A stretch of 64,000 nucleotides of DNA from Candidatus Spongiihabitans sp. (GCA_965206355.1 OZ242212.1:1009540-1073539), one strand, 5' to 3'. Shown: positions 4,548 through 62,990, numbered from the stretch's first letter. Numbers and translations are program-made. The notes: generated by a model not told the origin, from the sequence alone.

Positions 4548-4686
4548 GAGACCTTTGCACGAAAGCCATTTCACCTGCATGCTGCGTTAAAAACGTACTC
4601 AATCGGTCATTTATAAGCATAAACTCCCTCATTCCGTGCGTTTTTGCCTGGTCTAAAAGCGAAATCATCTTCCGTGCAAAGGTCTC
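4548..4686 (+). mobile_element. MITE copy 1 (139 bp), flanks not duplicated
   Basis: GAGACCTTTGCACG...CGTGCAAAGGTCTC. Flanks gtatt / aataa differ. Confidence 0.93.
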
Positions 4687-4794
4687 AATAAAAGCGTCTG
4701 CCATAATGTCAAATCAAATCCTGAAAATCCAGCGTTGTTATTTTCTGTCATTGCCGATTTTGGTGTCGTTGATAGCCATATTCGCTATACCCTG

Positions 4795-5871
4795 ATGTCA
4801 CCTCCGCCAAATAATGTTGATGATTTCCATAGCCTGGTCAGGTTGATTAAAATCTGGGGAATGCAGCTGGGCTTCTCGCATACTGCCATCAGTGATGTTG
4901 ATTTGGGTGAGGCAGAGCAGCGTCTTGGCGACTGGCTCAAGCAGGGTTTTCACGGTGAGATGGCTTATATGTCCCGCCATGGCACTAAACGCACCCGCCC
5001 TGACGAATTAGTAGCAGGCACCATCAGCGTCATTACCGTGCGCATGGATTACCTGCCACAAACCATGCAACAGGCACAAATGGCACTGTCAAATCCGAGC
5101 ATCGGCTATATTGCCCGCTACGCGCTGGGACGCGATTATCACAAGGTGATGCGTCGCAAACTACAGCAACTGGCGCATCGAATTAGTGCTAAAGCAGGTA
5201 GCTTTGGTTATCGTGTCTTGTGCGACAGCGCACCAGTTATGGAGAAAGCGCTGGCACAAAAATCCGGTCAAGGCTGGATTGGCAAACATACCAACATTCT
5301 CAATCGCGAAAGTGGTTCTTGGTTTTTTCTCGGTGAAATCTATACCGACATGCCACTACCTGTTGATGTCTCGGCCCGTGCCCATTGCGGCAGTTGTACT
5401 GCCTGCATTGATATTTGTCCGACTGCTGCCATTGTCGCACCTTATCAACTTGATGCGCGGCGATGTATCTCCTATCTCACCATTGAGCTTCAAGGCAGCA
5501 TTCCTGTCGAGTTCAGAAAAGCCATCGGCAACCGGATTTTTGGTTGCGATGACTGCCAACTGGTTTGTCCGTGGAACCGCTATGCCAAAATCAGCACACA
5601 ACCTGATTTCACCATTCGCCACCACCTCGATGCAACTGCGCTGACCGCGCTGTTTGAGTGGGACGAGAAAAGCTTTGCGCGACACACCGAAGGCTCGGCG
5701 ATTCGACGACTCGGGTGTAGCAGATGGTTGCGCAATATCGCCATTGCGTTGGGTAATGCACCCACGAGCGCGGCCGTCATATCTGCCTTACGCAAGCGCC
5801 TCAACCACCCTTCCAGCATGTTGCGTGAACACGTTGCTTGGGCACTGGCACAACATACTGACACGAAATAA
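4795..5871 (+). CDS. queG: Epoxyqueuosine reductase
   Basis: YALGRDYH, DSAPVMEK, CGSCTACIDICPT and GCDDCQLVCPWN Fe-S motifs. Confidence 0.96.
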   Translation: MSPPPNNVDDFHSLVRLIKIWGMQLGFSHTAISDVDLGEAEQRLGDWLKQGFHGEMAYMSRHGTKRTRPDELVAGTISVITVRMDYLPQTMQQAQMALSNPSIGYIARYALGRDYHKVMRRKLQQLAHRISAKAGSFGYRVLCDSAPVMEKALAQKSGQGWIGKHTNILNRESGSWFFLGEIYTDMPLPVDVSARAHCGSCTACIDICPTAAIVAPYQLDARRCISYLTIELQGSIPVEFRKAIGNRIFGCDDCQLVCPWNRYAKISTQPDFTIRHHLDATALTALFEWDEKSFARHTEGSAIRRLGCSRWLRNIAIALGNAPTSAAVISALRKRLNHPSSMLREHVAWALAQHTDTK

Positions 5872-5877
5872 CACAAT

Positions 5878-6016
5878 GAGACCTTTGCACGAAAGCCCTT
5901 TCACCTGCATGCTGCGTTAAAAACGTACTCAATCGGTCATTTATAAGCATAAACTCCCTCATTCCGTGCGTTTTTGCCTTACCTGAAAGCGAAATCATCT
6001 TCCGTGCAAAGGTCTC
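5878..6016 (+). mobile_element. MITE copy 2 (139 bp), TSD ACAAT
   Basis: TIRs present. acaat at 5873-5877 and 6017-6021. Confidence 0.95.
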
Positions 6017-6345
6017 ACAATAACAAAGTAGCCCCGCGTCGCGCTTTAAGACATGTCCTTATCGGCAGAAAGACTAATGTTTTTAGCGGTGATTATTCTG
6101 CCAGCGCAATCATATCTTCGGACTGCCAGCAGACGACAATGTTGCATAGTATTTTCTCTGTTAGTGGTGGATTAGGGATGCCTGTCAAGCACCAGCGTAT
6201 GTTCGGAAAATGTTGCCAGTATCGCGTAGCCGTGTCAATTCATTGTATGAGTCCACCCCATATTGCACTTCATTTACTCAACATTTAGTGCAATATGTTT
6301 CTGAACTTATACATATTTTACGGTGGCTAGAAAATATTCTTAAAT

Positions 6346-6364
6346 GCTATTGCGAATCATTCTC
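6346..6364 (+). promoter_or_regulatory. Putative Fur box upstream of the Fe(III) ABC operon
   Basis: gctattgcgaatcattctc matches 14/19 of GATAATGATAATCATTATC. Confidence 0.7.
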
Positions 6365-6416
6365 ACTTTCATTAAAATACGTTGTCATTTTCAACATTCT
6401 TTATTTATTACCACTT

Positions 6417-6555
6417 GAGACCTTTGCACGGAAGATGATTTCGCTTTTAGGCCAGGCAAAAACGCACGGAATGAGGGAGTTTATGCTTATAAATGACCGA
6501 TTGAGTACGATTTTAACGTAGCATGGAGGTGAAATGGCTTTCGTGCAAAGGTCTC
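6417..6555 (-). mobile_element. MITE copy 3 (139 bp, reverse), TSD CACTT
   Basis: TIRs present. cactt at 6412-6416 and 6556-6560. Confidence 0.95.
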
Positions 6556-6595
6556 CACTTATTACCTTATTACGCTCACTTATTATTCAAGTACT

Positions 6596-7633
6596 ATGCA
6601 AAAATATATTACCCGATTCAAACACGCTATTCTCACTATCACCTTATTGGCAGCGACTGTATCTGCTCACAATCTGGCGCAAGCCGCCGAAGAAGTTAAT
6701 GTTTACTCCTACCGCAAACCTCAGCTCATCCAGCCGATGTTTGATGAATTTACCGCCTCCAGCGGCATAGCGGTCAATGTTGTATTTGCCAAAAAAGGCA
6801 TGCTGGAAAAACTGCAAAGCGAAGGCATTAACAGTCCGGCTGATCTGGTATTTACCGTTGACATCGGGCGGTTATCGGATGTCAAGAATGCCGACTTAAC
6901 ACAGGCGGTGCAATCAACCGTATTGGCGCAGAATATCCCGTCCAATATGCGTGATGATGAAAATCACTGGTTTGGATTAACTTCAAGAGCGCGTATTATC
7001 GTTACCTCAAAAACGCGCGTTGCTGAGGGTATGGTGGCCACATACGAAGATCTCGGTGCGCCAAAGTTGAACGGGCTGATTTGCACACGCTCGGGCAAAC
7101 ACCCCTATATGGTCGCATTAACTGCTGCTATGATTGCCCATCACGGCAGTGCCGATGCACAGCGTTGGCTTGCCGGATTAAAATCCAATCTGGCTCGTCG
7201 GCCTGCAGGCAATGATCGCGCTCAGGTCAAGGCAATCCAGCAAGGCGTATGCGACATTGCGGTAATCAATCACTATTATATGTATAAAATGCTTAATGAT
7301 CCGCAACAAAAAGCCTGGGCAGATGCCGTTAATGTTATCTTTCCCAATCAAAACAATCATGGCACGCACATGAATATCAGCGGTATGGCAATGACCCGAC
7401 ACGCGCCTAATCGGGATAACGCCTTAAAACTCATGGAGTTTCTTGCAGGCGAAAAAGCCCAGAAAATGTATGCCCAATTAAATGGTGAATATGCGGTCAA
7501 GCACGACATCGCACTGGCGGAGCAGGTATCCGCTTGGGGCGATTTTAAGCGTGATGGTGTCAGCCTCACTGATGTCGCTTCCTATCGGCGGGAAGCCTCA
7601 AAGATGGCAGATCGTGTTGGCTACGATGACTAA
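6596..7633 (+). CDS. Fe(III) ABC transporter substrate-binding protein (FutA/FbpA family)
   Basis: Signal peptide, VNVYSYR, EGxNSPAD, GNDRAQVKAI and NHYY tyrosine ligands. Confidence 0.92.
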   Translation: MQKYITRFKHAILTITLLAATVSAHNLAQAAEEVNVYSYRKPQLIQPMFDEFTASSGIAVNVVFAKKGMLEKLQSEGINSPADLVFTVDIGRLSDVKNADLTQAVQSTVLAQNIPSNMRDDENHWFGLTSRARIIVTSKTRVAEGMVATYEDLGAPKLNGLICTRSGKHPYMVALTAAMIAHHGSADAQRWLAGLKSNLARRPAGNDRAQVKAIQQGVCDIAVINHYYMYKMLNDPQQKAWADAVNVIFPNQNNHGTHMNISGMAMTRHAPNRDNALKLMEFLAGEKAQKMYAQLNGEYAVKHDIALAEQVSAWGDFKRDGVSLTDVASYRREASKMADRVGYDD

Positions 7634-7682
7634 CCCGGTAAGCCTCAAGGATGGCGGGTCGTATTGACTACGATGACTAACC
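7593..7682. repeat. Degenerate tandem duplication (47-bp period) of the 3' end of the Fe-binding protein gene
   Basis: 7593-7635 vs 7640-7682: 38/43 identical, including the stop codon. Confidence 0.85.
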
Positions 7683-7694
7683 GATGATTCCTCT

Positions 7695-9416
7695 TTGAGC
7701 GATACCAATTTAAGCCCCTGCAGTCGTGTCAATCCTTGGCGAATTGGCACGACTGTTATCGCCGTTGTGGCGACACTGCCAGTGCTTGCTATTTTTTGGC
7801 TGGCGTTTTCCCCTGCCGAAAATATCTGGCCGCATTTAGCCGATACTGTTTTACCACGCTATCTTTTCAACACTGCCATTTTGATGGTGGGTGTGAGTAT
7901 CTCAGTGTTCCTGATCGGGGTGTCCAGTGCTTATCTGGTCAGCACCTATGCGTTTCCCTTACGCACTTGTTTTGAATGGCTTTTAATCCTGCCACTTGCC
8001 GTTCCTGCCTACGTCATCGCTTATCTTTATACCGACCTGCTGGACTTTTCCGGTCCGCTACAGACGATGCTGCGCAGTTTCTTTGGTTGGCGCACCGGTG
8101 ACTATTGGTTTCCAAATGTCCGTAGTATGGGAGGCGCAATTATGTTGATGGCATTGGTGTTATATCCTTATGTCTATCTGATGGCACGTGCTTCATTTCT
8201 GGAGCAATCACCCCATCTGCTTGATGTCAGTCGGCTGATGGGGCGCTCTCGCTTCAACACCTTTCTGTTTGTGTCATTACCCATTGCCAGACCGGGTATT
8301 GCCATTGGTATCGCTTTGGCACTGATGGAGACGCTTAACGATTTTGGCACCGTAGATTATTTTGCAATACAGACATTAACTGTCGGTATATTTGATGTTT
8401 GGCTAAATATGAATAATCTGGGTGGTGCGGCGCAGATTGCCATTGTCATGCTCAGTTTTGTTTTGTTGCTCATCGCTCTTGAATACATCGGACGCAAACG
8501 CACCGGTTTTTACCAGAGTATGGGCAGATTCACGCACAGCGAAAAAATTCAGCTCAACGGGCTGACAAAATGGTTGGCATTCAGTGTTTGTTTTGTTCCG
8601 GTTCTCGCTGGGTTTTTTATTCCAACCGCTATGCTGGTTAACTATGGGATAAGCTATTTTGAACAATCATGGAGTGATCAGTTTCGGGGATACGCATTAA
8701 ATAGTCTGTCCGTTTCTGGCATTGCAGCGCTGTGTTGTGTCGTTACCGCACTGTTGGTGAGCTATGCAAAACGCATTGAAGGCACGCTCTGGTCTGGTAT
8801 GGCATCCAAACTCGCTGCTATGGGTTATGCCGTGCCCGGGGCAGTCCTTGCGGTTGGTGTTATCATTCCGCTCGCCGCATTTGACAATGCCGTGGATGGT
8901 TTTTTTCGAACGCATTTTGCGTTCTCCAGCGGCTTATTACTCAGTGGCACCACTTTCGCGCTCATATTAACCTATGTGATCCGCTTTCTGGCAATATCAA
9001 TCGGCAGTATCGAATCCAGTTTTTCCAAAATCTCCAACTCCATCGATATGGCAGCTCGTACACTGGGGCATCCCCCGTTCAGAACCTTGCGGCTTTATCA
9101 TTTGCCGCTGATTAAAAGCGGTATTTTCACTGCTACCTTAATCGTTTTTGTTGATTGTATGAAAGAGTTGCCAGCAACGTTGTTGTTGCGCCCGTTTAAT
9201 TTTGAAACGCTGGCGACCCATGTTTACCTGTTTGCCTCTGACGAGATGATTGAGCAAAGTGCTCTCGCCGCCTTATTGATTGTGCTTGCTGGATTGATTC
9301 CAGTGATTGTGTTAAGCCAGACAATTTCGTATTCTCAGACTTTAGCATGCCAGTCTGATTTAGCTGCCGCCACACCCCATCCCACACCGCCACAACGTGC
9401 TGATGAGCCTACTTAA
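7695..9416 (+). CDS. Fe(III) ABC transporter permease
   Basis: Multi-TM protein with two EAA-like loops and MKELPATLLLRPFNFETLA. Confidence 0.92.
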   Translation: MSDTNLSPCSRVNPWRIGTTVIAVVATLPVLAIFWLAFSPAENIWPHLADTVLPRYLFNTAILMVGVSISVFLIGVSSAYLVSTYAFPLRTCFEWLLILPLAVPAYVIAYLYTDLLDFSGPLQTMLRSFFGWRTGDYWFPNVRSMGGAIMLMALVLYPYVYLMARASFLEQSPHLLDVSRLMGRSRFNTFLFVSLPIARPGIAIGIALALMETLNDFGTVDYFAIQTLTVGIFDVWLNMNNLGGAAQIAIVMLSFVLLLIALEYIGRKRTGFYQSMGRFTHSEKIQLNGLTKWLAFSVCFVPVLAGFFIPTAMLVNYGISYFEQSWSDQFRGYALNSLSVSGIAALCCVVTALLVSYAKRIEGTLWSGMASKLAAMGYAVPGAVLAVGVIIPLAAFDNAVDGFFRTHFAFSSGLLLSGTTFALILTYVIRFLAISIGSIESSFSKISNSIDMAARTLGHPPFRTLRLYHLPLIKSGIFTATLIVFVDCMKELPATLLLRPFNFETLATHVYLFASDEMIEQSALAALLIVLAGLIPVIVLSQTISYSQTLACQSDLAAATPHPTPPQRADEPT

Positions 9417-10446
9417 AGTCGATAACATTCGCTGTTACTACGCCTGTCAAAGTGCAGTTGAGTCGGTTTCATTTGCGCTTGACGAGAGCAGCCTCGTCTG
9501 TTTGCTCGGCCCCAGTGGCTGTGGTAAAACCACGGTATTGCGTGCGATTGCTGGTTTTCAAAAGCTGCTTAGCGGTACTATCACACTCAACAACCGCTGC
9601 TTTTCCAGCGCACAAGGCCATATCCCTCCTGAGCGGCGTAATATCAGCATGGTATTTCAGGACTGCGCCTTGTTTCCTCACCTGACTGTGGAAAAAAATA
9701 TTGCTGCCGGATTATATGGTCATACCAAAAACAGCATTGACAACACGGTCGCAGAAATGCTCGGCTATGTGCGGTTAAGCGGATTCGGCAAACGCTATCC
9801 CCACGAACTATCTGGCGGACAGCAACAACGGGTTGCCTTGGCGCGTGCGCTGGCACCGAAACCGCGATTGTTGTTGATGGACGAACCCTTTTCCAGTCTT
9901 GATCTGGAATTACGCGAAAGTCTGGGGCAGGAAGTGCGGGATTTATTAAAAAATATCGGCACGACCTGTATTTTGGTCACCCACGACCAACAGGATGCGT
10001 TTACCTTCAGCGATGAGGTCGGGGTGATGAAAGCGGGCAAAATTGAGCAATGGGATACGCCTTATAACCTATATCACAAACCGGCCACGCGGTTTGTTGC
10101 CGATTTTATCGGTGACGGTGTGTTTCTGGATGCGACTATCCTGGATAAAAACAACATCGAGTCTGAACTGGCGGTACTGAGCGGTGAGCTTGCCGAGAAT
10201 GCCCACCGCGGACAACGTATCCGCTTACTGATTCGACCCGATGACATCATCCATGACGATGACAGTAAAATGACTGCGCGAATCAAGAAAAAAATATTTC
10301 GTGGTGAAAGTTATCTATACACGCTGGTCCTGCCCAGCGGCAATGAAATTTTGTCGTTAGTGCCCTCTCATCACAACCACGCCATCGGCGAAAATCTCGG
10401 TATAAAACTGGAAATAGATCATCTGGTTTATTTCGATGATAATTGA
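9403..10446 (+). CDS. Fe(III) ABC transporter ATP-binding protein
   Basis: GPSGCGKTT, LSGGQQQR, LLLMDEP and a C-terminal TOBE-like region. Confidence 0.93.
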   Translation: MSLLKVDNIRCYYACQSAVESVSFALDESSLVCLLGPSGCGKTTVLRAIAGFQKLLSGTITLNNRCFSSAQGHIPPERRNISMVFQDCALFPHLTVEKNIAAGLYGHTKNSIDNTVAEMLGYVRLSGFGKRYPHELSGGQQQRVALARALAPKPRLLLMDEPFSSLDLELRESLGQEVRDLLKNIGTTCILVTHDQQDAFTFSDEVGVMKAGKIEQWDTPYNLYHKPATRFVADFIGDGVFLDATILDKNNIESELAVLSGELAENAHRGQRIRLLIRPDDIIHDDDSKMTARIKKKIFRGESYLYTLVLPSGNEILSLVPSHHNHAIGENLGIKLEIDHLVYFDDN

Positions 10447-10753
10447 TATATCCTTAAATCAAGGGGGACTTCTTTTTTATTCCCTCCTAAAGCAACCCCT
10501 CTCATATCATTCTTGCTCTTTGTCAGGAGGACTGCTTTTTTTATCCCTTTTTTCAGAAAGGACTTGTTTCAATTTTTCATTAATTCTATACAATAGCGAG
10601 CACAAACAGCAATGATAAAACAGCGTCAAGTGAGGTTTTTGCATAGTCTCTAATGGTGCGCTCTGGCCATTATGTCAATGTCTAAATGAGGCATGTTACA
10701 AGGTATAATTAGTCCTTCAATATATCCGTCAAATAAAGACCTAAATAAAGATT

Positions 10754-11428
10754 ATGTCAAATGTAATGCCGAAAACGCTGATAACGACCACAACGCAGCA
10801 AGTTATTGACTATTTGAAGCAGCACCCGTCCTTCTTTAGAGAAAACGAGGCGTTATTGTGCGATTTGGATTGGGGGGGACTGGGCGATGAACACGCGATA
10901 CCCTTTTACGAAAGACAGATTAAGGCTTTGAAGGAGCGGGAAAATCAACGGAAAACCACGATTGATGCGATTGTTGATAGCGCAAAAAATAATCAGCGAT
11001 TGGAGTCTGATTTGCTGAATATGGCCGTGCATCTTTTGGGCCACCGAGAACATAAAAAAGAAGCGACCGCAACAGTCAGCGCATTGGTAAAGCGACAGTT
11101 TGATATGGACGATGTGGTTGTCCTGTTGGATAACGATGCCCACCGTCATAGCCGATACGATGATGTGCGGCAGCGGGTCGCCCATCACAGCAGTATCTGT
11201 GATGATCGGGTTTCGAGCCATTTGCTTGCAGCCTTGTTTAGCGGTGATGATAAGGCGATTAAGTCCATTCAGTCCTGTGCTTTTGTGCCTTTGATTTTTG
11301 CAGATGAAATCAACGGCGTGATGGTGTTAGGCTCAAGCTCAAAGACACGATTCCAACTGGGGGTTGGGGTTGTTTTTCTTGATCGGTTAGGTCTTTTGCT
11401 AGGTGGATATTTTCAGGACAACAAATAA
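10754..11428 (+). CDS. DUF484 (YigA-like) protein
   Basis: YLKQHPSFF...ERQ motif. Lies directly upstream of xerC. Confidence 0.85.
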   Translation: MSNVMPKTLITTTTQQVIDYLKQHPSFFRENEALLCDLDWGGLGDEHAIPFYERQIKALKERENQRKTTIDAIVDSAKNNQRLESDLLNMAVHLLGHREHKKEATATVSALVKRQFDMDDVVVLLDNDAHRHSRYDDVRQRVAHHSSICDDRVSSHLLAALFSGDDKAIKSIQSCAFVPLIFADEINGVMVLGSSSKTRFQLGVGVVFLDRLGLLLGGYFQDNK

Positions 11429-11469
11429 CCCAATACAATAACCCAGCAAATAGCCCAATAAATAATTCT

Positions 11470-12426
11470 ATGCCTTCCCTGCAAGATCCAATTCGGCAAT
11501 TCCTCAATGCCTTAGAACAGGAAAGAAGGCTATCGACAAACACAATCCATGCCTACCAGCGTGATTTGCAGCAATTACTTGAATTTGCCAATGACAAGCA
11601 CGTTTCGGACTGGTCGTTATTATCAATTCGGCAAGCCCGATCTTTTCCAGCAACACTGCATCAGCGCGGATTGTCGGGACACAGCATACAGCGTATGCTG
11701 TGCGCATGTCGCGCGTTCTATCGGTTTTTATTAAAGCGCGGTGGCGTGGTTATGAATCCATTTGCAGGAATAACGGCACCAAAATCGCCGAAAAAGTTGC
11801 CACAAACTTTAAGCGTTGATGAACTCAGTGGCTTGCTTGCACAACACGATAACCGCATTTTGTCCTTGCGTGATCATGCCATGCTTGAGCTGTTTTATTC
11901 GTCAGGGTTGCGCTTGTCGGAACTGGCTTCTCTTGATGTCAATGCCATCGATTTTCAACAAAGCCAGATTATGGTTGTCGGCAAGGGTAATAAGCAAAGA
12001 CTGCTTCCGTTAGGTCGCAAAGCTGTTGCCGCACTAACGGCATGGTTAGCAAGGCGACACGAGCTGGTTATGTCGCCACATGGACAAGCGACAACAAGGT
12101 TATCGGAGACAGCCCGCTCGGAAGCCGCCTTGTTTGTCAATCAAAAGGGCACAAGGTTGAGTGTTCGAGGCATTCAATATCGACTCAACCAATGGGCCAA
12201 AGAAAAAGGGCTGGGGCGCAGATTGCATCCTCATATATTGCGCCATTCATTCGCCAGCCATGTTCTCGAATCCAGTGGAGACCTGCGCGCCGTGCAGGAA
12301 ATGTTGGGACACTCCGATATCGCAACCACACAGATATACACCCATCTGGATTTTCAACATCTTGCCAAAATCTATGATCAAGCACATCCGCGGGCGCGAA
12401 AGCGCTCAAAACAGACTCCAAAATAA
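11470..12426 (+). CDS. xerC: Tyrosine recombinase XerC
   Basis: SGLRLSEL, GKGNKQR, HPHILRHSFA, LGH, TTQIYTHLDFQHLA and HPRA. DUF484 context. Confidence 0.95.
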   Translation: MPSLQDPIRQFLNALEQERRLSTNTIHAYQRDLQQLLEFANDKHVSDWSLLSIRQARSFPATLHQRGLSGHSIQRMLCACRAFYRFLLKRGGVVMNPFAGITAPKSPKKLPQTLSVDELSGLLAQHDNRILSLRDHAMLELFYSSGLRLSELASLDVNAIDFQQSQIMVVGKGNKQRLLPLGRKAVAALTAWLARRHELVMSPHGQATTRLSETARSEAALFVNQKGTRLSVRGIQYRLNQWAKEKGLGRRLHPHILRHSFASHVLESSGDLRAVQEMLGHSDIATTQIYTHLDFQHLAKIYDQAHPRARKRSKQTPK

Positions 12427-12500
12427 GCCAGCCAGCGAACGCTGTGTTAAAATGATTGACATCGGCAATCAATATCATTCAATAACTCACGAGGGTATCT

Positions 12501-12968
12501 ATGGCAATCGAAGAAGGCAAGTACGCACCAGCGTTTACACTTAAAAATCAAAACGGCGATAGTGTGGCGTTAAGTGATTTCAAGGGCAACAATGTAATCG
12601 TTTATTTTTATCCGAAAGATGATACGCCAGGCTGTACCAAACAGGCTTGTGGGTTCCGTGATCTGTGGGCAGACATTAAAGCAAGCGGCGTAATCGTATT
12701 GGGCGTTTCTCCTGACGATGCACAATCTCATACGCAATTTATTGACAAATATGCGCTACCATTTACCCTGTTGTCCGATCCCGATAAAACGATGATGACT
12801 GAATATGCGGCCTATGGGGAGAAAATGATGTATGGCAAAAAAATGATCGGTATCATTCGTTCAACAGTATGGATTGGTAGCGATGGCAAGGTGAAAAAGC
12901 ATTGGCGCAAGGTCCCGAATGCTGCTGCCCATCCCGCCAAAGTATTGCAGGCTTTGCAGGGTAATTAG
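12501..12968 (+). CDS. bcp: Thioredoxin-dependent peroxiredoxin BCP
   Basis: YFYPKDDTPGCTKQAC. Confidence 0.93.
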   Translation: MAIEEGKYAPAFTLKNQNGDSVALSDFKGNNVIVYFYPKDDTPGCTKQACGFRDLWADIKASGVIVLGVSPDDAQSHTQFIDKYALPFTLLSDPDKTMMTEYAAYGEKMMYGKKMIGIIRSTVWIGSDGKVKKHWRKVPNAAAHPAKVLQALQGN

Positions 12969-13075
12969 CAGCTGTCAATAACATGCGTTTTCTGGCGCGT
13001 TATGACATAGAGTGGACAGGTTGGCAGGATAGATAGGATGATGCAAGAAGCCCAGCATAAATTTCAGTATCAGTC

Positions 13076-16000
13076 TCACCGCTGTCTGAATCGGGTTGCA
13101 TCTGTCGTTTCCACATAACCTTGAGATGGAATGTTGCCGCTGTGTCCATCAATATGTGTGCCCGCGGATTGCACCAACAACTCGGCGGCATGATTGACGA
13201 TGTTGTTTTTGTAGTATTGTCGTAATTCTTGTAGGGTTAATCGACTGACGCTATCGGCAAACTGCTGTTGGCTGTCAAATTGATAGTGCTGATGATCAAT
13301 TTCACGCCAATAGCGTTGTGTTCTTTCGCTTAAATTCTTGTCTTTATTTCGTATTCGGGTTACCAAGCCGGATTGTAATGCGTTGAATTGTTGTTCGCTC
13401 ATTGCCTCCAGCGTATTGCTGAATTCACTGATGAACATATCGTACAACGTATTGATTTCCACAGGCGAATAGCTTGGACTCTGGGCGGTCAGCAGTAGTC
13501 CTGGGGTCTGATCTATGGTGAGCATGTTGGCATAAACGATGTAGCCGACACGATTAACTGTGCGAAGCTGGTTATAAAAGTCAGGTTCGAGCAAGTGGGT
13601 AAGCAATGCCATTTTCGCCCGTTCAATTCGGCTATTGTCGTTCCCTTGAAAATAGGCAACCAATGCCGAGTCGGTATGCGCCACTTCGAGACTACGCAGG
13701 TATCGTTTTGTCCGATCGAGCTTGCGTATTGTCGGCTTCTCGACATGGTCAATAAACTGACTTTTTTTCAGTAATCGCTCAAGCATTTGGCTACGCGCTA
13801 CAGTGTTTTCCAGACTGACATCACCATGCGATAATACCGTAACATTAACGATCTGAAAGAATTTGGGCACGAATTTTGCCAGATCATCAATCGTTAGCGA
13901 ATCAATGACCGCTATTTTTTCTTGCTCAGTCCAATAGGGTTGCAGTAACAGTCGATATATTTCGTGTACCACCTGATCGGCAGGGGAACTTTTTTCCACA
14001 TTATGCAGATTGAGAAGCATTCGCTCTTTTATGATGTTGAAGCGAGTCGCGTCATATTCGGGATCGGCTAATGCATCAATAATTAGTTTTAGCAGTTGTG
14101 ATTGTCGATCCTCAAAGCCACTGATACGCACCGAAATACCACGCGCATGGCGGTATAAGGTATAGTTCAGGTCTGCCAGATAGGCGGGATAAATCGTTTC
14201 GCTTAACTGGCTGTTGAGCAGTTGAACGTACAGTTCGGTCAGTAGCGAATTTTCCACATTGTTATTGGCGAGCGGAGATTGGATATTGAAATAAAAATTA
14301 GCTCTGGGGGTGTTAAATTCATTATCGGGTTGATACCAGATGGTCGCTTCTGGTGCAGTGAAAACCGATGCAGTGGAAGCTGAATTTGCTGAAGTCGTCT
14401 TTGCAAAAGCGGGTACTGAAATTGGCGTTGCTGGAAGTTGTTGCGGTATGTCTTGCTCGGCGGCAATCGCCAGCACCTCCAGTCGCTCAGGGATAAACGG
14501 ATTGGCTACGGGTAATTTCAGACCAGGGTGAATTGTTGGGGTTTTCCAGCGTTGCAAAGTCTCAGCTTTAATCGCTGTCAGCGAATACGGTACATCGTAA
14601 TAGCTGGAAATCTTGTCGGTTTGTAGAGACTGCGAGGTAATGTGTACATTAACCTTGTCGGCATTCAAATAATCTAAAAGTGTTTTGATGCGTTCGGGCG
14701 CAAACTCAGTTACCCGATACGCCCCCTGTAAGACATCTTGTGGCGGATAACGCTGCAGTCTGGATGCCAGCGACCGGGCTAATTGAGCGGGATGATGTTC
14801 CGACTCAAATCGAAAAGCCATGTTTGACAGCTTGCTTTGTTCCTGAAAACGCCATTCATTAATGCCGTGTTGTTTAATCAGGTTAATCGCCTGAAAAACC
14901 AGCTCACCGATGTCCTCAATATGATTGAGTCCCTGTTTTGTCAGATTTATGCGGATGCTGAACTCTCCCTGCACCTGATCCATATAATCTGCTCCAGCAG
15001 TCAAACCTTCAGCCCAACCGCGCTCCTTCAAAAGTGCATACAAGGAGCCACTGCCTTCGTGACCGAGTAAATTGGCAATATAACCGAGCGGTTTTGACCT
15101 GTATTGGGCATAAACCGAGGGAACGAAAAACACAAAACGTAGCACATTCAGTTCTTTTTCGGGTATTGAATGCAGGCGCGCGGGTATTAACCGGCTGTCC
15201 TGATATGGCTGGGTAAATAACTGTGCTGCCACATTCCGATTCGGGATTTGCGAAAACTGTTCAGACACCATTTGTTGCAGTTGCTCAAGCGGTTCCTTAC
15301 CCAGCACGACCAGCGTCATTATATTCGCCGAATAATACCGATTGTAAAATGCGATTAATGTTTCTCTGGCAGCGGCATCATCACGATCACGTAACGACTC
15401 CAGCGAGCCGACAAAGAATCTGGAAAATGGATGTGCCGTATTCAACCATTGTTTTTGCACTGCCCATAATCTGCGGTGCTCGTCTTTTTTCCGCGCCTGA
15501 TACTCCGAATCCACGATTGAGCGCTCTCGATCAACATAGACCTCATCAAAGGTCGGATCAATAAAGAATCGCGAAAACCGATGCAGTGCGGGTTCGAGAT
15601 GATTGGCAGCAATACTAAAATAGTAATTGGTATGAGCAAACGAGGTAAAAGCATTATTACTGCCACCATTGTTTTTTATGAACGCCTGATATTCTCCGGC
15701 ATTTGGATACTTTTTCGTGCCAAGAAACAGCATGTGTTCAAGAAAATGTGCCAACCCCTGCCAACCTTCGGGATCAGAGCCACTACCAACATAAACATCA
15801 AGAGCCGCTGCTGACTGATCGGTTTCGCTATCAGAGATTAGTAATACCTTGAGGCGATTGTCTAACTCTAAATAACGATATTGTTTCTGATCGAGCGGAC
15901 TTTTAGTCACGATATTTTGTGTGATGTCCTGTGCGACTTGTTGTGCGTTGCTGGCACTGATCATACCTGACACAAGAACCAAACTGAAAACCAGACTGAA

Positions 16001-16078
16001 CATCCGTCTGAAAATCAGCTCGCTAACCGGCATCAGTCTGGTGACAAAAATAAGGATTGAGCGGCGTATTTTCGGCAT
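13076..16078 (-). CDS. M16A insulinase/pitrilysin-family peptidase (start uncertain)
   Basis: GLAHFLEHMLFLG (HxxEH), NAFT, signal-like N-terminus and FYNQLRT. Confidence 0.9.
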   Translation of the reverse strand: MPKIRRSILIFVTRLMPVSELIFRRMFSLVFSLVLVSGMISASNAQQVAQDITQNIVTKSPLDQKQYRYLELDNRLKVLLISDSETDQSAAALDVYVGSGSDPEGWQGLAHFLEHMLFLGTKKYPNAGEYQAFIKNNGGSNNAFTSFAHTNYYFSIAANHLEPALHRFSRFFIDPTFDEVYVDRERSIVDSEYQARKKDEHRRLWAVQKQWLNTAHPFSRFFVGSLESLRDRDDAAARETLIAFYNRYYSANIMTLVVLGKEPLEQLQQMVSEQFSQIPNRNVAAQLFTQPYQDSRLIPARLHSIPEKELNVLRFVFFVPSVYAQYRSKPLGYIANLLGHEGSGSLYALLKERGWAEGLTAGADYMDQVQGEFSIRINLTKQGLNHIEDIGELVFQAINLIKQHGINEWRFQEQSKLSNMAFRFESEHHPAQLARSLASRLQRYPPQDVLQGAYRVTEFAPERIKTLLDYLNADKVNVHITSQSLQTDKISSYYDVPYSLTAIKAETLQRWKTPTIHPGLKLPVANPFIPERLEVLAIAAEQDIPQQLPATPISVPAFAKTTSANSASTASVFTAPEATIWYQPDNEFNTPRANFYFNIQSPLANNNVENSLLTELYVQLLNSQLSETIYPAYLADLNYTLYRHARGISVRISGFEDRQSQLLKLIIDALADPEYDATRFNIIKERMLLNLHNVEKSSPADQVVHEIYRLLLQPYWTEQEKIAVIDSLTIDDLAKFVPKFFQIVNVTVLSHGDVSLENTVARSQMLERLLKKSQFIDHVEKPTIRKLDRTKRYLRSLEVAHTDSALVAYFQGNDNSRIERAKMALLTHLLEPDFYNQLRTVNRVGYIVYANMLTIDQTPGLLLTAQSPSYSPVEINTLYDMFISEFSNTLEAMSEQQFNALQSGLVTRIRNKDKNLSERTQRYWREIDHQHYQFDSQQQFADSVSRLTLQELRQYYKNNIVNHAAELLVQSAGTHIDGHSGNIPSQGYVETTDATRFRQR

Positions 16079-16299
16079 ATTCAAATCCAGTCAAGGATTG
16101 TTTTTCTAAACAGCCAATATAGTCCCCGCCGCGAATTTTTCAAGTGTATTTCTCTCTGGGCAGGAGCGGAAAACCGTCAACTGGTGGACTTCACAGGCAT
16201 TCAGGTCCATTGAAAAACACTTCAGAATCTGTCTGAATTTAGCCTCTGAAATATGGGAATGGCGATAATACTTTAGCCTAACATAAATTAGCTAAAGTT

Positions 16300-16462: not shown

Positions 16463-16579
16463 GAGAATGATATGTTGTGAATTAAAAATGGAGAATTGAG
16501 AATGGAAAACAGGCAACAGCAAAACTCATCCGTTGTTCGGGTAGAAAGGTGAGCCATAAAGATAAAAGTGTAGCCACGG

Positions 16580-16837: not shown

Positions 16838-16883
16838 TTTTTATTGTTCCTCATTATGATGTGGCGATCACAAAGAACCGAGG

Positions 16884-18674: not shown

Positions 18675-18679
18675 TTTAC

Positions 18680-19033
18680 AGGCAAAGCGGGTTAAACTTG
18701 AACAGCAATTGATACACATGAATTCTCGATGACGCTACCGAATCATCTCAATATCGTTTCTACGATGCAAGCGATTCTTATATTTGCGAGGTGCGTTATG
18801 GAAGCGCAACCGCTAATGCCCTCCAGCGAGGGCTTTGGACTCATACAAAAAGCGGTTTAAATTATTTTGATAGCATAACCAATGGATGGGTTGATTATTC
18901 TCACAATCCTATCCTGGTCCAACTATTTTCTCACGCGCTTGTTTCTTCTGATTTCGGCCATAATGAGGCTCTTGCAAAAGTGAAAGATGATATTGTTAGA
19001 CTCAAGCAGGCTTCCCGCTTTAAAGTCACATAA
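18680..19033 (+). pseudogene. 5'-truncated gene remnant coupled to the methyltransferase, possibly a restriction endonuclease
   Basis: Open frame 18722-19033 preceded by in-frame TGA codons. Its TAA stop overlaps the MTase ATG (TAATG). Confidence 0.45.
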
Positions 19034-20316
19034 TGCAAGGGCAAGTTCAAATTTTTCGTGATTGGATTGATGTTCCAAAAACCGAAGGCATCAATTACGC
19101 AGGCTCAAAACTGAAACTGCTTCCACATATTTTTAATCTGTCAAAACAGACCGGAGCAAAAAGCATTTTTGACGGTTTTTCAGGATCCACCAGAGTAAGT
19201 CAATCTTTTGCACAAGCAGGATATCGCGTGGTATCAAATGATATTTCCGAATGGTCAAGAATTTTTGCCACGTGCTATTTGAAAAACTTAAAAAACCCGA
19301 AAATATACCAACCTCTTATTGATCATTTAAATTCGCTTCCTCCGGAAGACGGATGGTTTACTGAGAATTACGGTGGTGATGTTCGCTCTGGAACTTGCCA
19401 CAATGCTATTCAGAAGGATGGAACCAAAAAGCCTTGGCAGAAAAAAAATACAAGGAAACTTGATGCAATCAGGAGAGAGATCGATGCCTTGATGCTTGAT
19501 GACGTTTCCAAAAGTGTGGCATTGACAAGCCTGATTTTAGGGTTGAATGAGATAGACAGTACTCTTGGTCATTTTGTTTCTTATTTAAAAGGAGACCTTT
19601 GCACGAAAGCCATTTCACCTGTATGCTGCGTTAAAAACGTACTCAATCGGTCATTTATAAGCATAAACTCCCTCATTCCGTGCGTTTTTGCCTTGCCTGA
19701 AAGCGAAATCATCTTCCGTGCAAAGGTCTCAAAAGATTGGTCGCCGCGTTCATTCAAAAATTTACAATTGAAAGTGCCGCGGTTGTGGAAAAATGAAATC
19801 GAAAACACGGTGCTGTGTGGTGATGTTTTTAAGGTACTACCCGAAGCCGACGCCGATCTTGCTTATTTTGATCCTCCGTATGGGTCAAACAATGAAAAAA
19901 TGCCACCTTCAAGGGTTCGGTACGCTTCGTATTATCATTTGTGGACGACCATATGTAAAAATGATCATCCCGTGCTATTTGGCAAGTCCCTCCGCAGAAA
20001 AGACACATCCGATAAAGTGGCGGCTTCAGTGTTCGAGGAATTTCGTAGAAGCAAATCAGGACGATTGGTTGTGGTGGAAGCCATAGAGCGTTTGCTGAAG
20101 GAAACTCCTTGCCGATGGATCTTGCTCTCTTACAGTTCCGGTGGACGAGCAACCGCGGAGGAATTAAACGAGGTGATAACGCGTAACGGAGAAATTGTGG
20201 ATAGCGCAAAAATCGAGTATAAAAAAAATGTGATGGCCGCCATGAAATGGACAAATGAGTGGTTGCGGGAATCCAGCGAGCCGAACAAAGAATTCCTGTT
20301 TCTCATCCGAAAATAA
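19033..20316 (+). CDS. DNA adenine methyltransferase (D12 / FokI-NlaIII-like, alpha class) with an in-frame 48-aa MITE insertion
   Basis: NYAGSK, FDGFSGS (motif I) and YFDPPY (motif IV). Insertion at 19592-19735. Confidence 0.88.
   Translation: MQGQVQIFRDWIDVPKTEGINYAGSKLKLLPHIFNLSKQTGAKSIFDGFSGSTRVSQSFAQAGYRVVSNDISEWSRIFATCYLKNLKNPKIYQPLIDHLNSLPPEDGWFTENYGGDVRSGTCHNAIQKDGTKKPWQKKNTRKLDAIRREIDALMLDDVSKSVALTSLILGLNEIDSTLGHFVSYLKGDLCTKAISPVCCVKNVLNRSFISINSLIPCVFALPESEIIFRAKVSKDWSPRSFKNLQLKVPRLWKNEIENTVLCGDVFKVLPEADADLAYFDPPYGSNNEKMPPSRVRYASYYHLWTTICKNDHPVLFGKSLRRKDTSDKVAASVFEEFRRSKSGRLVVVEAIERLLKETPCRWILLSYSSGGRATAEELNEVITRNGEIVDSAKIEYKKNVMAAMKWTNEWLRESSEPNKEFLFLIRK
19592..19730 (+). mobile_element. 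MITE copy 4 (139 bp), TSD AAAAG, in-frame within the MTase
   Basis: TIRs present. aaaag at 19587-19591 and 19731-19735. Confidence 0.96.
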
Positions 20317-20323
20317 AACGAGA

Positions 20324-37589: not shown

Positions 37590-38278
37590 CCACAGATGAG
37601 ATTGGCGGTACCGATTTGAAAGAATACCCGTCCGTACCAAATGTTGCCGTTTCAATGGTCGTGTCATATCGAATCGGAGACCGGCGAATTGCTACATCGG
37701 GAATTTTTCGATACCAGCGGCATCCCGCCTATGCGAGGATTTATTGAATCGTTGTTACAGACAGCTGGTAAAAATAGTCCGATATTCGTTTACAGTGCCT
37801 TTGAGAAAAGTCGTTGATTGATTGTTGATTTATTGCCATTAACAAAACGGTATTATTGAGACCTTTGCACGAAAGCCATTTCATCTGCATGCTGCGTTAA
37901 AATCGTACTCAATCGGTCATTTATAAGCATAAACTCCCTCATTCCGTGCGTTTTTGCCTTGCCTACAAGCGAAATCATCTTCCGTGCAAAGGTCTCTTAT
38001 TATCATTCCGATATGTGTGGATCATGGTCGCTTAAAGCAGTCCTTCCGAGCATTGTCCCTCATTTTGATTATAGTGATCTTGGCGAAATTCAGGATGGCG
38101 GTGCGGCAGAAACCGCTTATCAGGGGTGCATTTATTCCGACACCGTCCACAGCGCAAGCAGTCGCTGACTGCTGACTTACTTGAGTATTGCAAACGTGAT
38201 ACTGAAGCGTTGGTTGTGCTGACGAGATTTCTGTCCACTGCTAAACAAAATAAAGTGCAGGGTTGGAAAACGGAGTGA
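37590..38278 (+). pseudogene. DUF2779-domain protein remnant interrupted by a MITE
   Basis: TRPYQMLPFQWSCH, VYSAFEKS, DLLP, GSWSLKAVLP, IQDGGAA and LLEYCKRDT, with stops and frameshifts. Confidence 0.8.
37858..37996 (+). mobile_element. MITE copy 5 (139 bp), TSD TTATT
   Basis: TIRs present. ttatt at 37853-37857 and 37997-38001. Confidence 0.95.
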
Positions 38279-46449: not shown

Positions 46450-46945
46450 TAACCCACGTTCTAATCCACATTGGCAAATATTCGAGTTGCTTCGGGGTAG
46501 AGTCGGGCAAACTCAACTTTTTTTGCACAAATTCCGTAAGCACCTGTTTCGGGTCATCATAGGCATTTAATATGAGACCTTTGCACGAAAGCCATTACCT
46601 GCATGCTGCGTTAAAATCGTACTCAATCGGTCATTTATAAGCATAAACTCCCTCATTCCGTGCGTTTTTGCCTGGCCTGAAAGCGAAATCATCTTCCGTG
46701 CAAAGGTCTCAATATGTCAAACGCCCGACTCCGGAGCGTAACCACTTCTTGTAAAACCGCATTGTATAAAATCAGCTTGCTACGGAAGTAGTAATGCACA
46801 TTTGCCTTTGGCATACCCGCCTTATCAGCAATTCTTTGCATCCGTGCCATCATAATCGTATTTTTTAAACTCCTGTTCGGCAGCTTTCAGGATAGCTCGC
46901 TGTTTTTCTACTCTGATTGTTGAAAATTGGCTAGCCTGTTCTATC
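46450..46945 (-). pseudogene. TetR/RutR-like regulator pseudogene with frameshifts and a MITE insertion
   Basis: AILKAAEQEF / MQRIADKAGMPKANVHYYFRSK..LY / DDP..L.EF.. / YPEATRIFAN, read in shifting frames. Confidence 0.8.
46574..46710 (+). mobile_element. MITE copy 6 (137 bp, 2-bp deletion), TSD AATAT
   Basis: TIRs present. aatat at 46569-46573 and 46711-46715. Confidence 0.95.
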
Positions 46946-48422: not shown

Positions 48423-48561
48423 GAGACCTTTGCACGAAAGCCATTTCACCTGCATGCTGCGTTAAAAACGTACTCAATCGGTCATTTATAAGCATAAACT
48501 CCCTCATTCCGTGCGTTTTTGCCTTGCCTGAAAGCGAAATCATCTTCCGTGCAAAGGTCTC
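48423..48561 (+). mobile_element. MITE copy 7 (139 bp), TSD ATAAT, supplies the addA stop codon
   Basis: TIRs present. ataat at 48418-48422 and 48562-48566. Confidence 0.95.
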
Positions 48562-58207: not shown

Positions 58208-58369
58208 GAGACCTTTGCACGGAAGATGATTTCGCTTTTAGGCCAGGCAAAAACGCACGGAATGAGGGAGTTTATGCTTATAAATGACCGATTGAGTACG
58301 ATTTTACCAACAGTAGGCGCTTTTAGGCGACGCAGCATGCAGGTGAAATGGCTTTCGTGCAAAGGTCTC
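58208..58369 (-). mobile_element. MITE copy 8 (162-bp long variant, reverse), TSD AATAC
   Basis: TIRs present. aatac at 58203-58207 and 58370-58374. Extra 23 bp at 58307-58329. Confidence 0.95.
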
Positions 58370-61632: not shown

Positions 61633-61779
61633 GCCACCGAAAAACGCCAATTAAAACAAACAAAACTCGGTCAAAATCAGGGAAATAACGATAAATTGAC
61701 ATTAAAATTGCCTAAAACCTAGCAATCATGCTAAACACTAAAAACGTAAAGCAAGCGATAACAGGGTCGCAGCATACGC

Positions 61780-61813
61780 ACACAAACACACACAAACACA
61801 CACACAACAACAA
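61780..61813. repeat. CA-rich microsatellite-like tract
   Basis: cacaaacacacacaaacacacacacaacaacaa. Confidence 0.7.
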
Positions 61814-61838
61814 ATGTGCGCACACCAGACCCCTTGCT

Positions 61839-61866
61839 GGAACTTTCCAAAATAGTAGCACTCTAC
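61839..61866 (+). promoter_or_regulatory. Putative sigmaE promoter of rpoH
   Basis: GGAACTT-N16-TCTA. Confidence 0.6.
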
Positions 61867-61881
61867 TGAAACGAGTGCTAG
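61855..61881. promoter_or_regulatory. CIRCE element (HrcA operator) upstream of rpoH
   Basis: TAGCACTC-N9-GAGTGCTA. Confidence 0.88.
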
Positions 61882-61904
61882 AATTGACAACCAAATTATA
61901 AAGA

Positions 61905-62774
61905 ATGTTGACTATGACCCAAACCTTACCCGTCACCGTTGATTTATCGAGCAGAGACAGTCTGCTAGCCTATATGCGTGCCGTTAATGCCGCGCCCATT
62001 TTATCGGCACAAAGAGAACGTGAACTGACATTGCGATACCACGATAACGGTGATTTAGACGCCGCCCGCGAACTGGTGCTGTCGCATCTTCGTTATGTTG
62101 TCAAAGTGGCAAAAGGATTTATGGGCTATGGATTACCACTGCCTGATTTAATCCAAGAGGGCAGTATCGGGCTGATGAAGGCGGTCAAACGATATGACCC
62201 CAGTCGGGATGTTCGTCTGGTATCGTTTGCAGTACATTGGATTCGTGCCGAAATTTACGATTATGTGCTACGCAACTGGCGTATGGTCAAGGTGGCGACA
62301 ACAAAAGCGCAACGTAAATTGTTCTTTAACCTGAGAAAAAACAAGACCCGATCAGGCTGGATGAACAACGCAGAAATCAACCAGATTGCGAAAAACCTTG
62401 ATGTTAAGACCAAAACCGTGCGGGAAATGGAATCACGGTTAAGCGGTACCGACATTGCATTTGATCCAACCGTTGATCAAGACGATGACGAACCTTATTT
62501 AGCACCCGCACAACATTTAGGCGACAACCGCTATGATCCTGAGATGCTGATAAGCAATAATCAGCAAAACAAAGTACGCGATCAGCAGTTGACCTCGGCA
62601 CTGACCCAGTTAGACGCACGTAGCAAAGATATCGTTAGCAGACGCTGGCTAAGCGATGACAAACCGACCTTGCATGAATTAGCTGATGAGTATGGCATTT
62701 CCGCTGAAAGAATTCGCCAGATTGAAAAACGCGCACTGGAAACAATGAAAAAAAGAATTTCAATGCTGGTGTAG
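61905..62774 (+). CDS. rpoH: Heat-shock sigma factor sigma32
   Basis: RpoH box QRKLFFNLR, DLIQEG and SAERIRQIE. Confidence 0.97.
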   Translation: MLTMTQTLPVTVDLSSRDSLLAYMRAVNAAPILSAQRERELTLRYHDNGDLDAARELVLSHLRYVVKVAKGFMGYGLPLPDLIQEGSIGLMKAVKRYDPSRDVRLVSFAVHWIRAEIYDYVLRNWRMVKVATTKAQRKLFFNLRKNKTRSGWMNNAEINQIAKNLDVKTKTVREMESRLSGTDIAFDPTVDQDDDEPYLAPAQHLGDNRYDPEMLISNNQQNKVRDQQLTSALTQLDARSKDIVSRRWLSDDKPTLHELADEYGISAERIRQIEKRALETMKKRISMLV

Positions 62775-62851
62775 GCCGTTTCGGGTTGTACTCAATGTGC
62801 CCGAAAACCGACTTTGGCTACAAATTTCAAGCAAACTTGGGAAGTTATATA

Positions 62852-62990
62852 GAGACCTTTGCACGAAAGCCATTTCACCTGCATACTGCGTTAAAATCGT
62901 ACTCAATCGGTCATTTATAAGCATAAACTCCCTCATTCCGTGCGTTTTTGCCTTGCCTGAAAGCGAAATCATCTTCCGTGCAAAGGTCTC
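62852..62990 (+). mobile_element. MITE copy 9 (139 bp), TSD ATATA
   Basis: TIRs present. atata at 62847-62851 and 62991-62995. Confidence 0.95.

Follow-up and report, generated by a model that had tools for sequence, protein, structure and literature searches.

How nine nearly identical short palindromes come to be dispersed over 64 kb of a bacterial genome, and whether they are still moving, is the question raised by a 64,000-nt stretch of DNA from Candidatus Spongiihabitans sp. (GCA_965206355.1, OZ242212.1:1009540-1073539). This whole stretch, referred to below as the window, corresponds to G000:C1:1009540-1073539, where G000 denotes the source genome assembly (2.39 Mb, three contigs, 46.9% G+C). 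The element is an almost fully palindromic, non-coding DNA of 139 bp, with variants of 157 and 162 bp. It is very probably a transposable element of the miniature inverted-repeat kind (MITE), derived from an insertion sequence (IS) of the IS5 family, non-autonomous and mobilised in trans, which recently expanded to about 330 loci and is most likely immobile now.

The 14-mer GAGACCTTTGCACG occurs 18 times in the window, whereas shuffled windows contain 0.43 +/- 0.62 occurrences and none of 100 shuffles reached 18. The 18 matches form nine convergent pairs and bound all nine copies as a perfect terminal inverted repeat, at the coordinates given in a preliminary description made from the sequence of this DNA alone. 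The reverse orientation of copies 6417 and 58208, the imperfect extension of the 14-bp repeat through ...ATTTC and the central TTTAT-AAGC-ATAAA hairpin were likewise described correctly. The nine copies had been taken to be uniformly 139 bp long, which applies to seven of them; copy 46574 is 137 bp and copy 58208 is 162 bp with a 23-nt internal insertion. An exact 5-bp target-site duplication (TSD) flanks eight of the nine, each with the 5-mer first read there, the exception being copy 4548 (Table 1). The window appears to be free of transposase genes, as had been claimed, as far as this was tested: both matches of the genome to PF01609 and all repeated IS copies detected by self-BLAST lie outside it.

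Possibly hundreds of copies had been predicted for the whole genome, and a BLAST search of G000 with the 139- and 162-bp forms detected 331 MITE loci; lengths of 139, 162 and 157 bp are found at 201, 58 and 18 of them, respectively. They total 47,265 bp, that is, 1.98% of the genome at 138 loci per Mb. All are confined to the large contig, and no copy of the terminal motif is present on the two small ones. The copies are dispersed singly with unique flanks and are not arrayed. No transposase gene is contained in any of the three sizes: four of the six reading frames are stopped, and the longest stop-free frames are as long as the element. Both GAGACC / GGTCTC termini are kept at 263 of the 331 loci. 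A perfect 5-bp TSD is found at 203 of these complete copies and a TSD with one mismatch at 24 more, whereas a control in which the right flank was shifted by 5-30 nt gave matches at 0-2 of the 263; no other TSD length fits the complete copies. The 203 reconstructed sites reveal a symmetric preference for Y|ANWNT|R in AT-rich DNA (Y 91% at -1; A/T 91% at TSD position 1; T/A 95% at TSD position 5; R 91% at +1). In the 139-bp class, 20 of 187 copies are identical to the consensus and the median distance from it is 2 of 139 nt, in agreement with the recent burst that had been proposed.

A transposase gene flanked by the same inverted repeat does exist elsewhere in the genome. PF01609 (DDE_Tnp_1) is matched at two loci in G000, L001 and L002, and at L001 it belongs to an IS5-family element, referred to below as the partner IS (Table 1), which is about 1230 bp (~1.23 kb) long once its two insertions are discounted. 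Its transposase open reading frame (ORF) of 380 aa matches PF01609 with E 1.7e-22 and NF033581 (transpos_IS5_4, IS5 family) with 249 bits against a cut-off of 140. Intact relatives of 1216-1247 bp with one ORF of 324-333 aa conform to the IS5 family, in which a single ORF in ~1-1.5 kb is bounded by short inverted repeats. The MITE and the partner IS have exactly 17 nt at the left end and 16 nt at the right end in common and nothing else, and the same 17 + 16 terminal nt are also identical in the intact relatives of the partner IS. Outside the 48-aa insert due to a MITE copy, the G000 transposase is 96-97% identical to three intact copies and keeps all invariant columns of a 10-sequence alignment, including the residues that we take to be the DDE catalytic positions. 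A tblastn search of G000, an assembly of 98.96% completeness, with an intact transposase found no other cognate gene; apart from the interrupted copy, it matched only a remnant of 60 aa at C1:914164-914343.

Other candidates for the partner were rejected. L002, the second PF01609 match, is an IS5_3-type fragment without the terminal motif. An IS1595-like element has unrelated ends (GGGGCTGTCCTAGATAAC) and an 8-bp TSD, and an rve/IS481-like element also has unrelated ends (TGTCCGGGTTCAG...). The former belongs to a G000 family of 735 bp with 17 copies and an 8-bp TSD (e.g. C1:227024-227758), and the latter to one of about 1.27 kb with ~9 copies, some of them truncated (e.g. C1:832100-833373); neither family has a copy in the window. 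Terminal motifs paired over longer distances (678-4117 bp) were examined as candidate full-length IS and rejected as separate or half copies around ordinary genes (GroEL-like and PurD-like ORFs). The GroEL-like ORF at G000:C1:394169-396765, outside the window, has a MITE end on either side, each of the 'left' type, which may represent two partial copies or a rearrangement between copies.

Sites without the element were looked for, as had been suggested, and single 5-mers or uninterrupted homologues were found in three contexts. Firstly, the transposase genes of five intact IS copies from other genomes can be aligned with the G000 copy to the left and right of the MITE, and the flanking alignment blocks overlap by 5 nt in the intact copies, so that AGATA is single there. 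Secondly, the two halves of a DNA methyltransferase interrupted by copy 19592 abut without an insert in seven of eight homologues in the order, only the C-terminal half being matched in the eighth. Residues 187-233 of the methyltransferase are absent from the homologues, and the alignment with the G007 homologue has a clean gap between ...SYL and KDW.... Thirdly, petC and the sspA-type gene, which flank copy 58208, are adjacent in all six of six sister species, with spacers of 62-158 nt in none of which the MITE is matched, while the G000 spacer of 220 nt contains the 162-bp copy and the duplication. G005 has a single CAATAC at this site, whereas in G000 the copy is flanked by AATAC left and right. 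Together with the TSDs at other genomic copies (203/263), these empty sites leave mobility unrefuted.

The element thus has the attributes of a prokaryotic MITE, namely small size without a transposase gene, terminal inverted repeats, a TSD of fixed length (5 bp), many dispersed copies with empty sites, and ends of 17 + 16 nt that, as judged from sequence, it has in common with an autonomous IS. The description of a non-autonomous element mobilised in trans is supported by the 331 loci, the 203 perfect TSDs among 263 copies, the empty sites and the same-ended transposase gene, mobilisation itself being inferred. Its palindromic design and intergenic position might also suggest a repeat that is not a derivative of a DDE transposon, such as repetitive extragenic palindromes (REP) or bacterial interspersed mosaic elements (BIME) moved by a REP-associated tyrosine transposase (RAYT), integron attC sites, a CRISPR-like array or an assembly artefact. 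Such an origin is hardly conceivable, being already contradicted by the TSDs and the empty sites: exact 5-bp direct duplications of varied sequence flank 203 of the 263 copies, and insertion in genes with known empty forms is precise. The inverted repeats, moreover, equal those of an IS with a DDE transposase, and the copies are single and dispersed with unique flanks, without arrays.

The partner IS has relatives in other genomes. A scan of species-representative genomes yielded 77 loci; transposases 90-96% identical to that of the partner were found in metagenome-assembled genomes (MAGs) labelled Alphaproteobacteria, Pseudohongiella and Thermodesulfobacteriota, and transposases 60-80% identical in many gammaproteobacterial MAGs. 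Partner-type proteins are also common in metagenomes, where the most specific name given to them is 'IS5 family transposase'. Direct flank repeats of 5 bp are present at seven of the 16 related IS loci inspected (L025, L026, L028, L031, L036, L069 and L089); L029 has a 6-bp repeat, L027, L030, L032, L034, L053, L092 and L095 have none, and at L033 only the left end was found. Within the same taxonomic family, related IS are 50-60% identical in amino acids and have ends of the GAGACCTTTGCATAA type; of the six inspected there in which both ends were found, five are flanked by 5-bp repeats. The partner IS aligns to the five intact copies in three blocks of 86-98% identity. IS copies from assemblies labelled as distant taxa are 91-95% identical to it in DNA over their first 854 nt (the other two blocks 86-98%), the IS or MITE loci in such assemblies being L026 and L102 (OZ242251.1), L025, L027-L029 and L089 (CBDBIK01 contigs), and L030 and L033 (OZ242184.1). 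Near-identical copies in assemblies so labelled imply recent horizontal spread or mislabelled MAGs.

The closest named relative of the partner IS is ISAba23 of Acinetobacter, each having a single DDE_Tnp_1 transposase. By the ISfinder convention, two elements are the same IS when their transposases are over 95-98% identical in amino acids. The identity here is 54% over the first 250 residues, so that the partner is not ISAba23 itself but can be regarded as a different IS of the ISAba23 clade, the 5-bp duplication and GAGACCTTTGCACGAA-type ends of which are found. ISAba23, of the IS5 family, is published with a length of 1249 bp, inverted repeats of 16 bp and a target duplication of 5 bp (PMC4110982); no MITE partner for it is mentioned in the accessible text of that paper. 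Its copy on plasmid pIP1858 has the ends GAAACCTTTGCACGAA... and ...TTCGTGCAAAGGTCTC, as in the partner IS.

From the anatomy, copy number, TSDs, target preference, empty sites and the matching but disrupted IS, all of them observed directly, a course of events can be proposed. The transposase of an ISAba23-type IS5 element (~1.23 kb, one DDE transposase) would have been supplied in trans and would bind both of the common 16-17-nt ends of the MITE. Integration at AT-rich Y|ANWNT|R sites would proceed through a 5-bp staggered cut of the target, whose repair would leave the 5-bp duplication; this chemistry is presumably that of DDE transposases in general. In this way the MITE would have spread, in an evolutionarily recent burst, to about 330 loci, nearly all of them intergenic. 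A copy is inserted in frame in the transposase gene of the only full-length cognate IS, and an IS1595-like element downstream of its stop codon; the family would now be stranded, except in the event that the insert is tolerated or that a transposase is brought in from elsewhere. The likely mobiliser is the partner IS or a close relative, as suggested by the common ends. Both the burst and the self-insertion are judged recent because divergence among the copies is low and the interrupted gene is otherwise intact; the burst is probably over.

The MITE insertion presumably inactivates the transposase, and since the only cognate transposase gene in the assembly carries it, the present activity of the family is doubtful; with a MITE copy in the transposase gene of the only full-length cognate IS, the family is most likely immobile without an outside transposase. 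It is rather unlikely that the family is still mobile, either because the transposase tolerates the 48-residue insert or because it is cross-mobilised by an outside transposase acting on GAGACCTTTGCA-type ends, which a plasmid or an incoming IS might bring. A tolerated insert would accord with several features: the reading frame runs through it without a stop codon, its place in the catalytic triad is between the second D and the E, no invariant residue is lost, the rest of the protein is 97% identical to intact copies, and a public protein collection has the ORF as a single protein of 380 aa (P0004). The 20 of 187 consensus copies in the 139-bp class also speak for mobility, as do the IS copies of 95% nucleotide identity and the 99%-identical MITE with a TSD in an unrelated chromosome, which suggest that exchange with other hosts is ongoing. 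However, a DDE enzyme is usually inactivated by an insertion of 48 aa in its catalytic core, the 98.96%-complete assembly contains no second cognate transposase, and the two small contigs are devoid of the terminal motif.

Several observations weigh against the reading of an IS5-derived MITE whose burst has ended. Sixty of the 263 complete copies have no perfect TSD, window copy 4548 among them. The sample comprises one genome per species, and within-species insertion polymorphism lies beyond it. The likeness between the MITE and the partner IS is confined to the terminal 16-17 nt, which is insufficient to establish descent from the partner IS by internal deletion, and a different IS with the same ends could be the mobiliser. 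The partner IS has no direct TSD, its flanks being AAAAT and ATTTT (L001:982-986 and 3087-3091; G000:C1:2037572-2039681). The insertion in the transposase gene is in frame with every invariant residue still in place, and an AlphaFold model of the 380-aa insert-bearing transposase is of low confidence (mean predicted local distance difference test score, pLDDT, 58; 24-29 over the insert). Finally, the central 50-60 nt of the MITE and not its subterminal arms are best conserved across species, which a pure 'ends only' parasite model leaves unexplained. As for the flanks of the partner IS, AAAAT and ATTTT are mutual reverse complements, which may be due to chance in AT-rich DNA or may be a trace of recombination between copies.

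Genes are largely avoided. When genes were called roughly from the 1824 ORFs of at least 110 aa, 237 of the 263 complete copies proved intergenic, lying in tandem (139), divergent (49) and convergent (49) spacers approximately in proportion to the spacer DNA of each class. When the copies were excised in silico, the site fell inside an ORF with >=60 codons on both sides in 11 of 263 cases, as against 1209 of 2000 random positions. Copy plus duplication (139 + 5) add 144 nt and thus 48 codons, and the MITE is open in two frames out of six, so that a few genic copies are read through. Such in-frame copies are found in the DNA methyltransferase, the IS transposase and an AMP-binding-enzyme ORF (C1:1245151). 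The Pfam match of the methyltransferase ends at the insertion point (residue 185, profile position 138 of 253). The stop codon of a UvrD-like helicase ORF of 1155 aa (48560-48562) consists of the last two bases of copy 48423 and the first TSD base, and the insertion has therefore reshaped the end of this ORF. In practical terms, 48 residues have been added to a DNA methyltransferase and a stop codon has been supplied to a helicase ORF.

Each copy is an imperfect palindrome over its full length and forms one hairpin on either strand. RNA folding of both strands, proposed earlier as a check, gave a single stable hairpin each, with energies of -42.6 and -58.5 kcal/mol (z -6.1 and -8.0). In copies from eight other genomes, conservation outside the terminal 14 nt is highest at the centre, where an A4 tract and CTCAATCGGTCATTTA precede a variable loop and TAAACTCCCTC with a T4 tract follows it; it is lower in the arms beside the inverted repeats. 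Among 21 copies from different genomes, 17 fold as one symmetric hairpin despite differing arm sequences (single-sequence folds, 60 mononucleotide shuffles each), and in two genomes the loop-closing stem has the double change TTTAT/ATAAA to TTTAC/GTAAA. RNAalifold on the 21 copies recovered a terminal stem and two short helices only, the MAFFT alignment of the arms being poor. A binding site, or a structure that transposition requires, may account for the conserved core.

These features could be taken to mean that the core or the whole element is kept for a function of the host or of its own spread, as a protein-binding site, as an RNA hairpin that ends or stabilises transcripts, or as a structure needed in transposition, and that its abundance is partly selected. 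The central block with its A4/T4 tracts is better conserved than the arms in the eight other genomes, the symmetric hairpin persists in 17 of 21 copies although the arms differ, the loop-closing stem shows paired changes, and the hairpin is stable. There is nevertheless a small chance only that this applies. Orientation relative to flanking genes shows no significant bias (80 opposite, 59 same), and the distribution over spacers (139, 49, 49) follows the share of spacer DNA. A simple scan of window 4300-6800, which includes three copies, detected 5 promoter-like sites against 4.3 expected, none of them inside a copy, and no terminator-like site. Rfam gave no match at the gathering threshold for the whole window and none at E <= 1 for one copy. 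Palindromy with matching arms is, besides, usual in MITEs and can be explained by binding of the same protein to both ends.

Spread of the element as an IS5-derived MITE can be followed beyond G000. Within the genus, four of seven genomes match it at E <= 0.001 with identities of 72-90%: a first look gave 332 candidates in G000, 70 in G004, 29 in G005 and one weak partial match in G006, and no match at this threshold was found in G001-G003. In the order, 8 of 243 genomes in two families match at E <= 1e-8; of 400 genomes sampled evenly over the class, 6 have a match, one further genome being left unscored. Among five genomes reached via IS loci, two have a match. G070, a complete chromosome labelled uncultured Pseudohongiella, contains one 99%-identical copy of 139 bp with its own TSD (AAGAT) and unrelated flanks, and G072 has nine matches, of which several are pieces of one copy, with full copies of the 161/162-bp form included. 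A diverged copy lies in the flanks of 2 of 88 IS-bearing loci, and in other genomes a perfect 5-bp TSD flanks 7 of the 23 distinct copies for which both ends were located. In all, diverged copies are present in at least 12 other genomes, and the MITE lineage is older than G000 and extends beyond it, with a patchy distribution and some horizontal spread. No other genome searched has an expansion nearly as large as that of G000. A plasmid collection gave no blastn match to the MITE, and eight loci in viral contigs obtained by a scan with a 16-nt core were discarded as chance matches of 16-19 nt without the terminal motif. A more comprehensive picture can be offered tentatively, and is to be regarded as possible rather than probable: one MITE lineage with a conserved non-terminal core might move horizontally with its ISAba23-type partner among unrelated bacteria, might have reached a near-record density here and ended its own burst, and its core with the compensated hairpin might be a functional module, such as a host-factor site or a transposase enhancer site.

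The copies also affect the assembly of these genomes. Contigs from public sequencing runs mapped on window 4300-6800 have their ends inside the MITE repeats, and they provide no clean empty-site allele or bridging piece over this region; one contig in X3 joins window 5877 to 6020 with 11 other letters between. Short-read assemblies break at every MITE copy, which matters for the annotation of this genome and its relatives.

Table 1. Positions of the MITE copies, of the interrupted methyltransferase gene and of the partner IS with its two insertions (window positions unless a locus is given)
Feature	Position	Strand	Remarks
MITE copy	4548..4686	+	139 bp; no TSD (GTATT / AATAA); between GTPase gene (3728-4324) and queG-like gene (4735-5871)
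MITE copy	5878..6016	+	139 bp; TSD ACAAT; starts 7 nt past the queG-like stop
MITE copy	6417..6555	-	139 bp; TSD CACTT; upstream of solute-binding-protein gene (6596-7633)
MITE copy	19592..19730	+	139 bp; TSD AAAAG; in frame in DNA methyltransferase gene, read through as 48 extra residues
MITE copy	37858..37996	+	139 bp; TSD TTATT; between cmoB-like gene (36551-37540) and chorismate synthase gene (38672-39760)
MITE copy	46574..46710	+	137 bp (2-nt deletion); TSD AATAT
MITE copy	48423..48561	+	139 bp; TSD ATAAT; adjoins UvrD-like helicase ORF 48560-52027(-)
MITE copy	58208..58369	-	162-bp variant; TSD AATAC; between cytochrome c1 gene (petC) and GST-like (sspA-type) gene
MITE copy	62852..62990	+	139 bp; TSD ATATA; between sigma-70-family gene (61905-62774) and ABC ATPase gene (63126-63929)
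D12-class N6-adenine DNA methyltransferase ORF (427 aa)	19033..20316	+	carries the in-frame MITE 19592-19730 (+48 aa)
IS5-family partner IS	G000:C1:2037577-2039676 = L001:987-3086		outside the window; ends GAGACCTTTGCACGAAACC... (left) and ...CGTGCAAAGGTTTC (right)
MITE copy in transposase gene	L001:1841-1979		TSD AGATA; 139 bp, in frame, no stop; adds 144 nt = 48 codons
IS1595-like element within partner IS	L001:2235-2952		TSD AAAATGAA; just past the transposase stop codon

Some other repeats and a strand switch are found in the window and in the rest of the assembly. At window 7589-7682, where the solute-binding-protein ORF meets the next one, there are two 47-bp units in tandem with 87% likeness. 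The cumulative GC skew peaks near 40 kb (window ~38000-41000), and the long ORFs are on the + strand up to 39760 and on the - strand from 39780; these two changes together look like a switch of the replication-terminus type. At G000:C1:1681236-1717551 and C1:1142277-1143538, outside the window, self-BLAST revealed very large repeats, in blocks of 21 kb and 13 kb that match themselves many times, and an array of a Sel1-like repeat protein. The contig G000:C2 (22.3 kb), which has no MITE copy, matches itself over almost its whole length (1-8663, 8769-18490, 18598-22331) and may be a concatenated or repeated replicon.

Compared with known systems, an IS5-derived MITE is of an ordinary kind, and the family itself is previously undescribed as far as the searches reach. 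No named repeat was matched in Rfam, and neither the 14-nt inverted repeat nor a 17-nt core was found in either orientation in the library of papers searched; the supplements of a bioRxiv MITE census may list this genome. The 12-nt tip occurs there in three papers, one on a Porphyromonas gingivalis MITE, one on Kingella, as part of a primer, and an unrelated one on chicken. The likeness to IS1106 that had been suggested is right in kind, as seen by comparison with ISNme1 and ISAba23, not with IS1106 itself: the IS5-family ISNme1 of Neisseria has the inverted repeat GAGACCTTTGCAAAA, and ISAba23 has the same ends with a 5-bp TSD. The inverted repeat of ISNme1 equals that of the present MITE over the first 12 nt and differs at positions 13-17. 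According to PMC4596501, in Table 2 of which GAGACCTTTGCAAAA is listed, ISNme1 is the proposed parent of the AT-rich repeat (ATR) MITE of Neisseria meningitidis on inverted-repeat identity alone. The ATR/ISNme1 pair thus stands in the same 'ends only' relation as the MITE and IS described here, a likeness known from the 12-nt tip alone, and ATR is given with 19 copies in PMC4596501 against about 330 here. The same source gives the 12-nt terminal motif GAGACCTTTGCA of the present MITE for BrickBuilt_4 and _5 of P. gingivalis, and IS5-family partners (ISPg1/ISPg4) for BrickBuilt and MITEPgRS, as is likewise the case here (PMC4596501). As described there, however, BrickBuilt contains a minisatellite, has both inverted repeats in 4 of 19 copies and is flanked by TSDs of unequal length, whereas the present copies are uniform with a fixed 5-bp TSD (PMC4596501).

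The nearest analogues are the Correia elements of Neisseria and the Rickettsia palindromic elements (RPE), because of the abundance of the former and the in-frame genic copies of the latter. Correia elements differ from this MITE in their ends, and the duplication at their insertion sites is TA. Like the present copies, they are described as short, palindromic and mostly intergenic with a percent-level share of a genome of ~2 Mb, and more than 120 copies are reported for N. gonorrhoeae (PMC10969869). They are also stated to contain promoters and an integration host factor (IHF) site (PMC10969869), neither of which was detected in this MITE by a simple scan. RPE are presented as palindromes of about 150 bp that can sit in frame in protein genes (PMC10969869). 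The analogy to RPE-1 drawn in the preliminary description holds for size, palindromy and in-frame genic copies, being known from descriptions and not from sequence comparison. It fails for predominantly in-frame genic insertion: unlike most RPE copies, genic copies are exceptional here (11/263 sites against 60% of random positions), and the present element has inverted repeats, TSDs and a transposase partner.

A survey of 183,232 genomes gives 123 per Mb and 1.23% as the highest densities of all MITEs taken together (bioRxiv 10.1101/2024.01.18.576219), and this family alone, with 138 loci per Mb and 2.0% of the genome, lies above both. Among such systems the present one is of added interest for this unusual density, for the interruption of its own likely mobiliser and for the in-frame copy in a methyltransferase. 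By inserting in its own likely mobiliser, the MITE would provide the case of a parasite limiting its own spread. With uniform copies, exact footprints, a known partner IS and documented empty sites, it is also a clean natural MITE burst, suited to testing the choice of ends and targets by IS5-type transposases.

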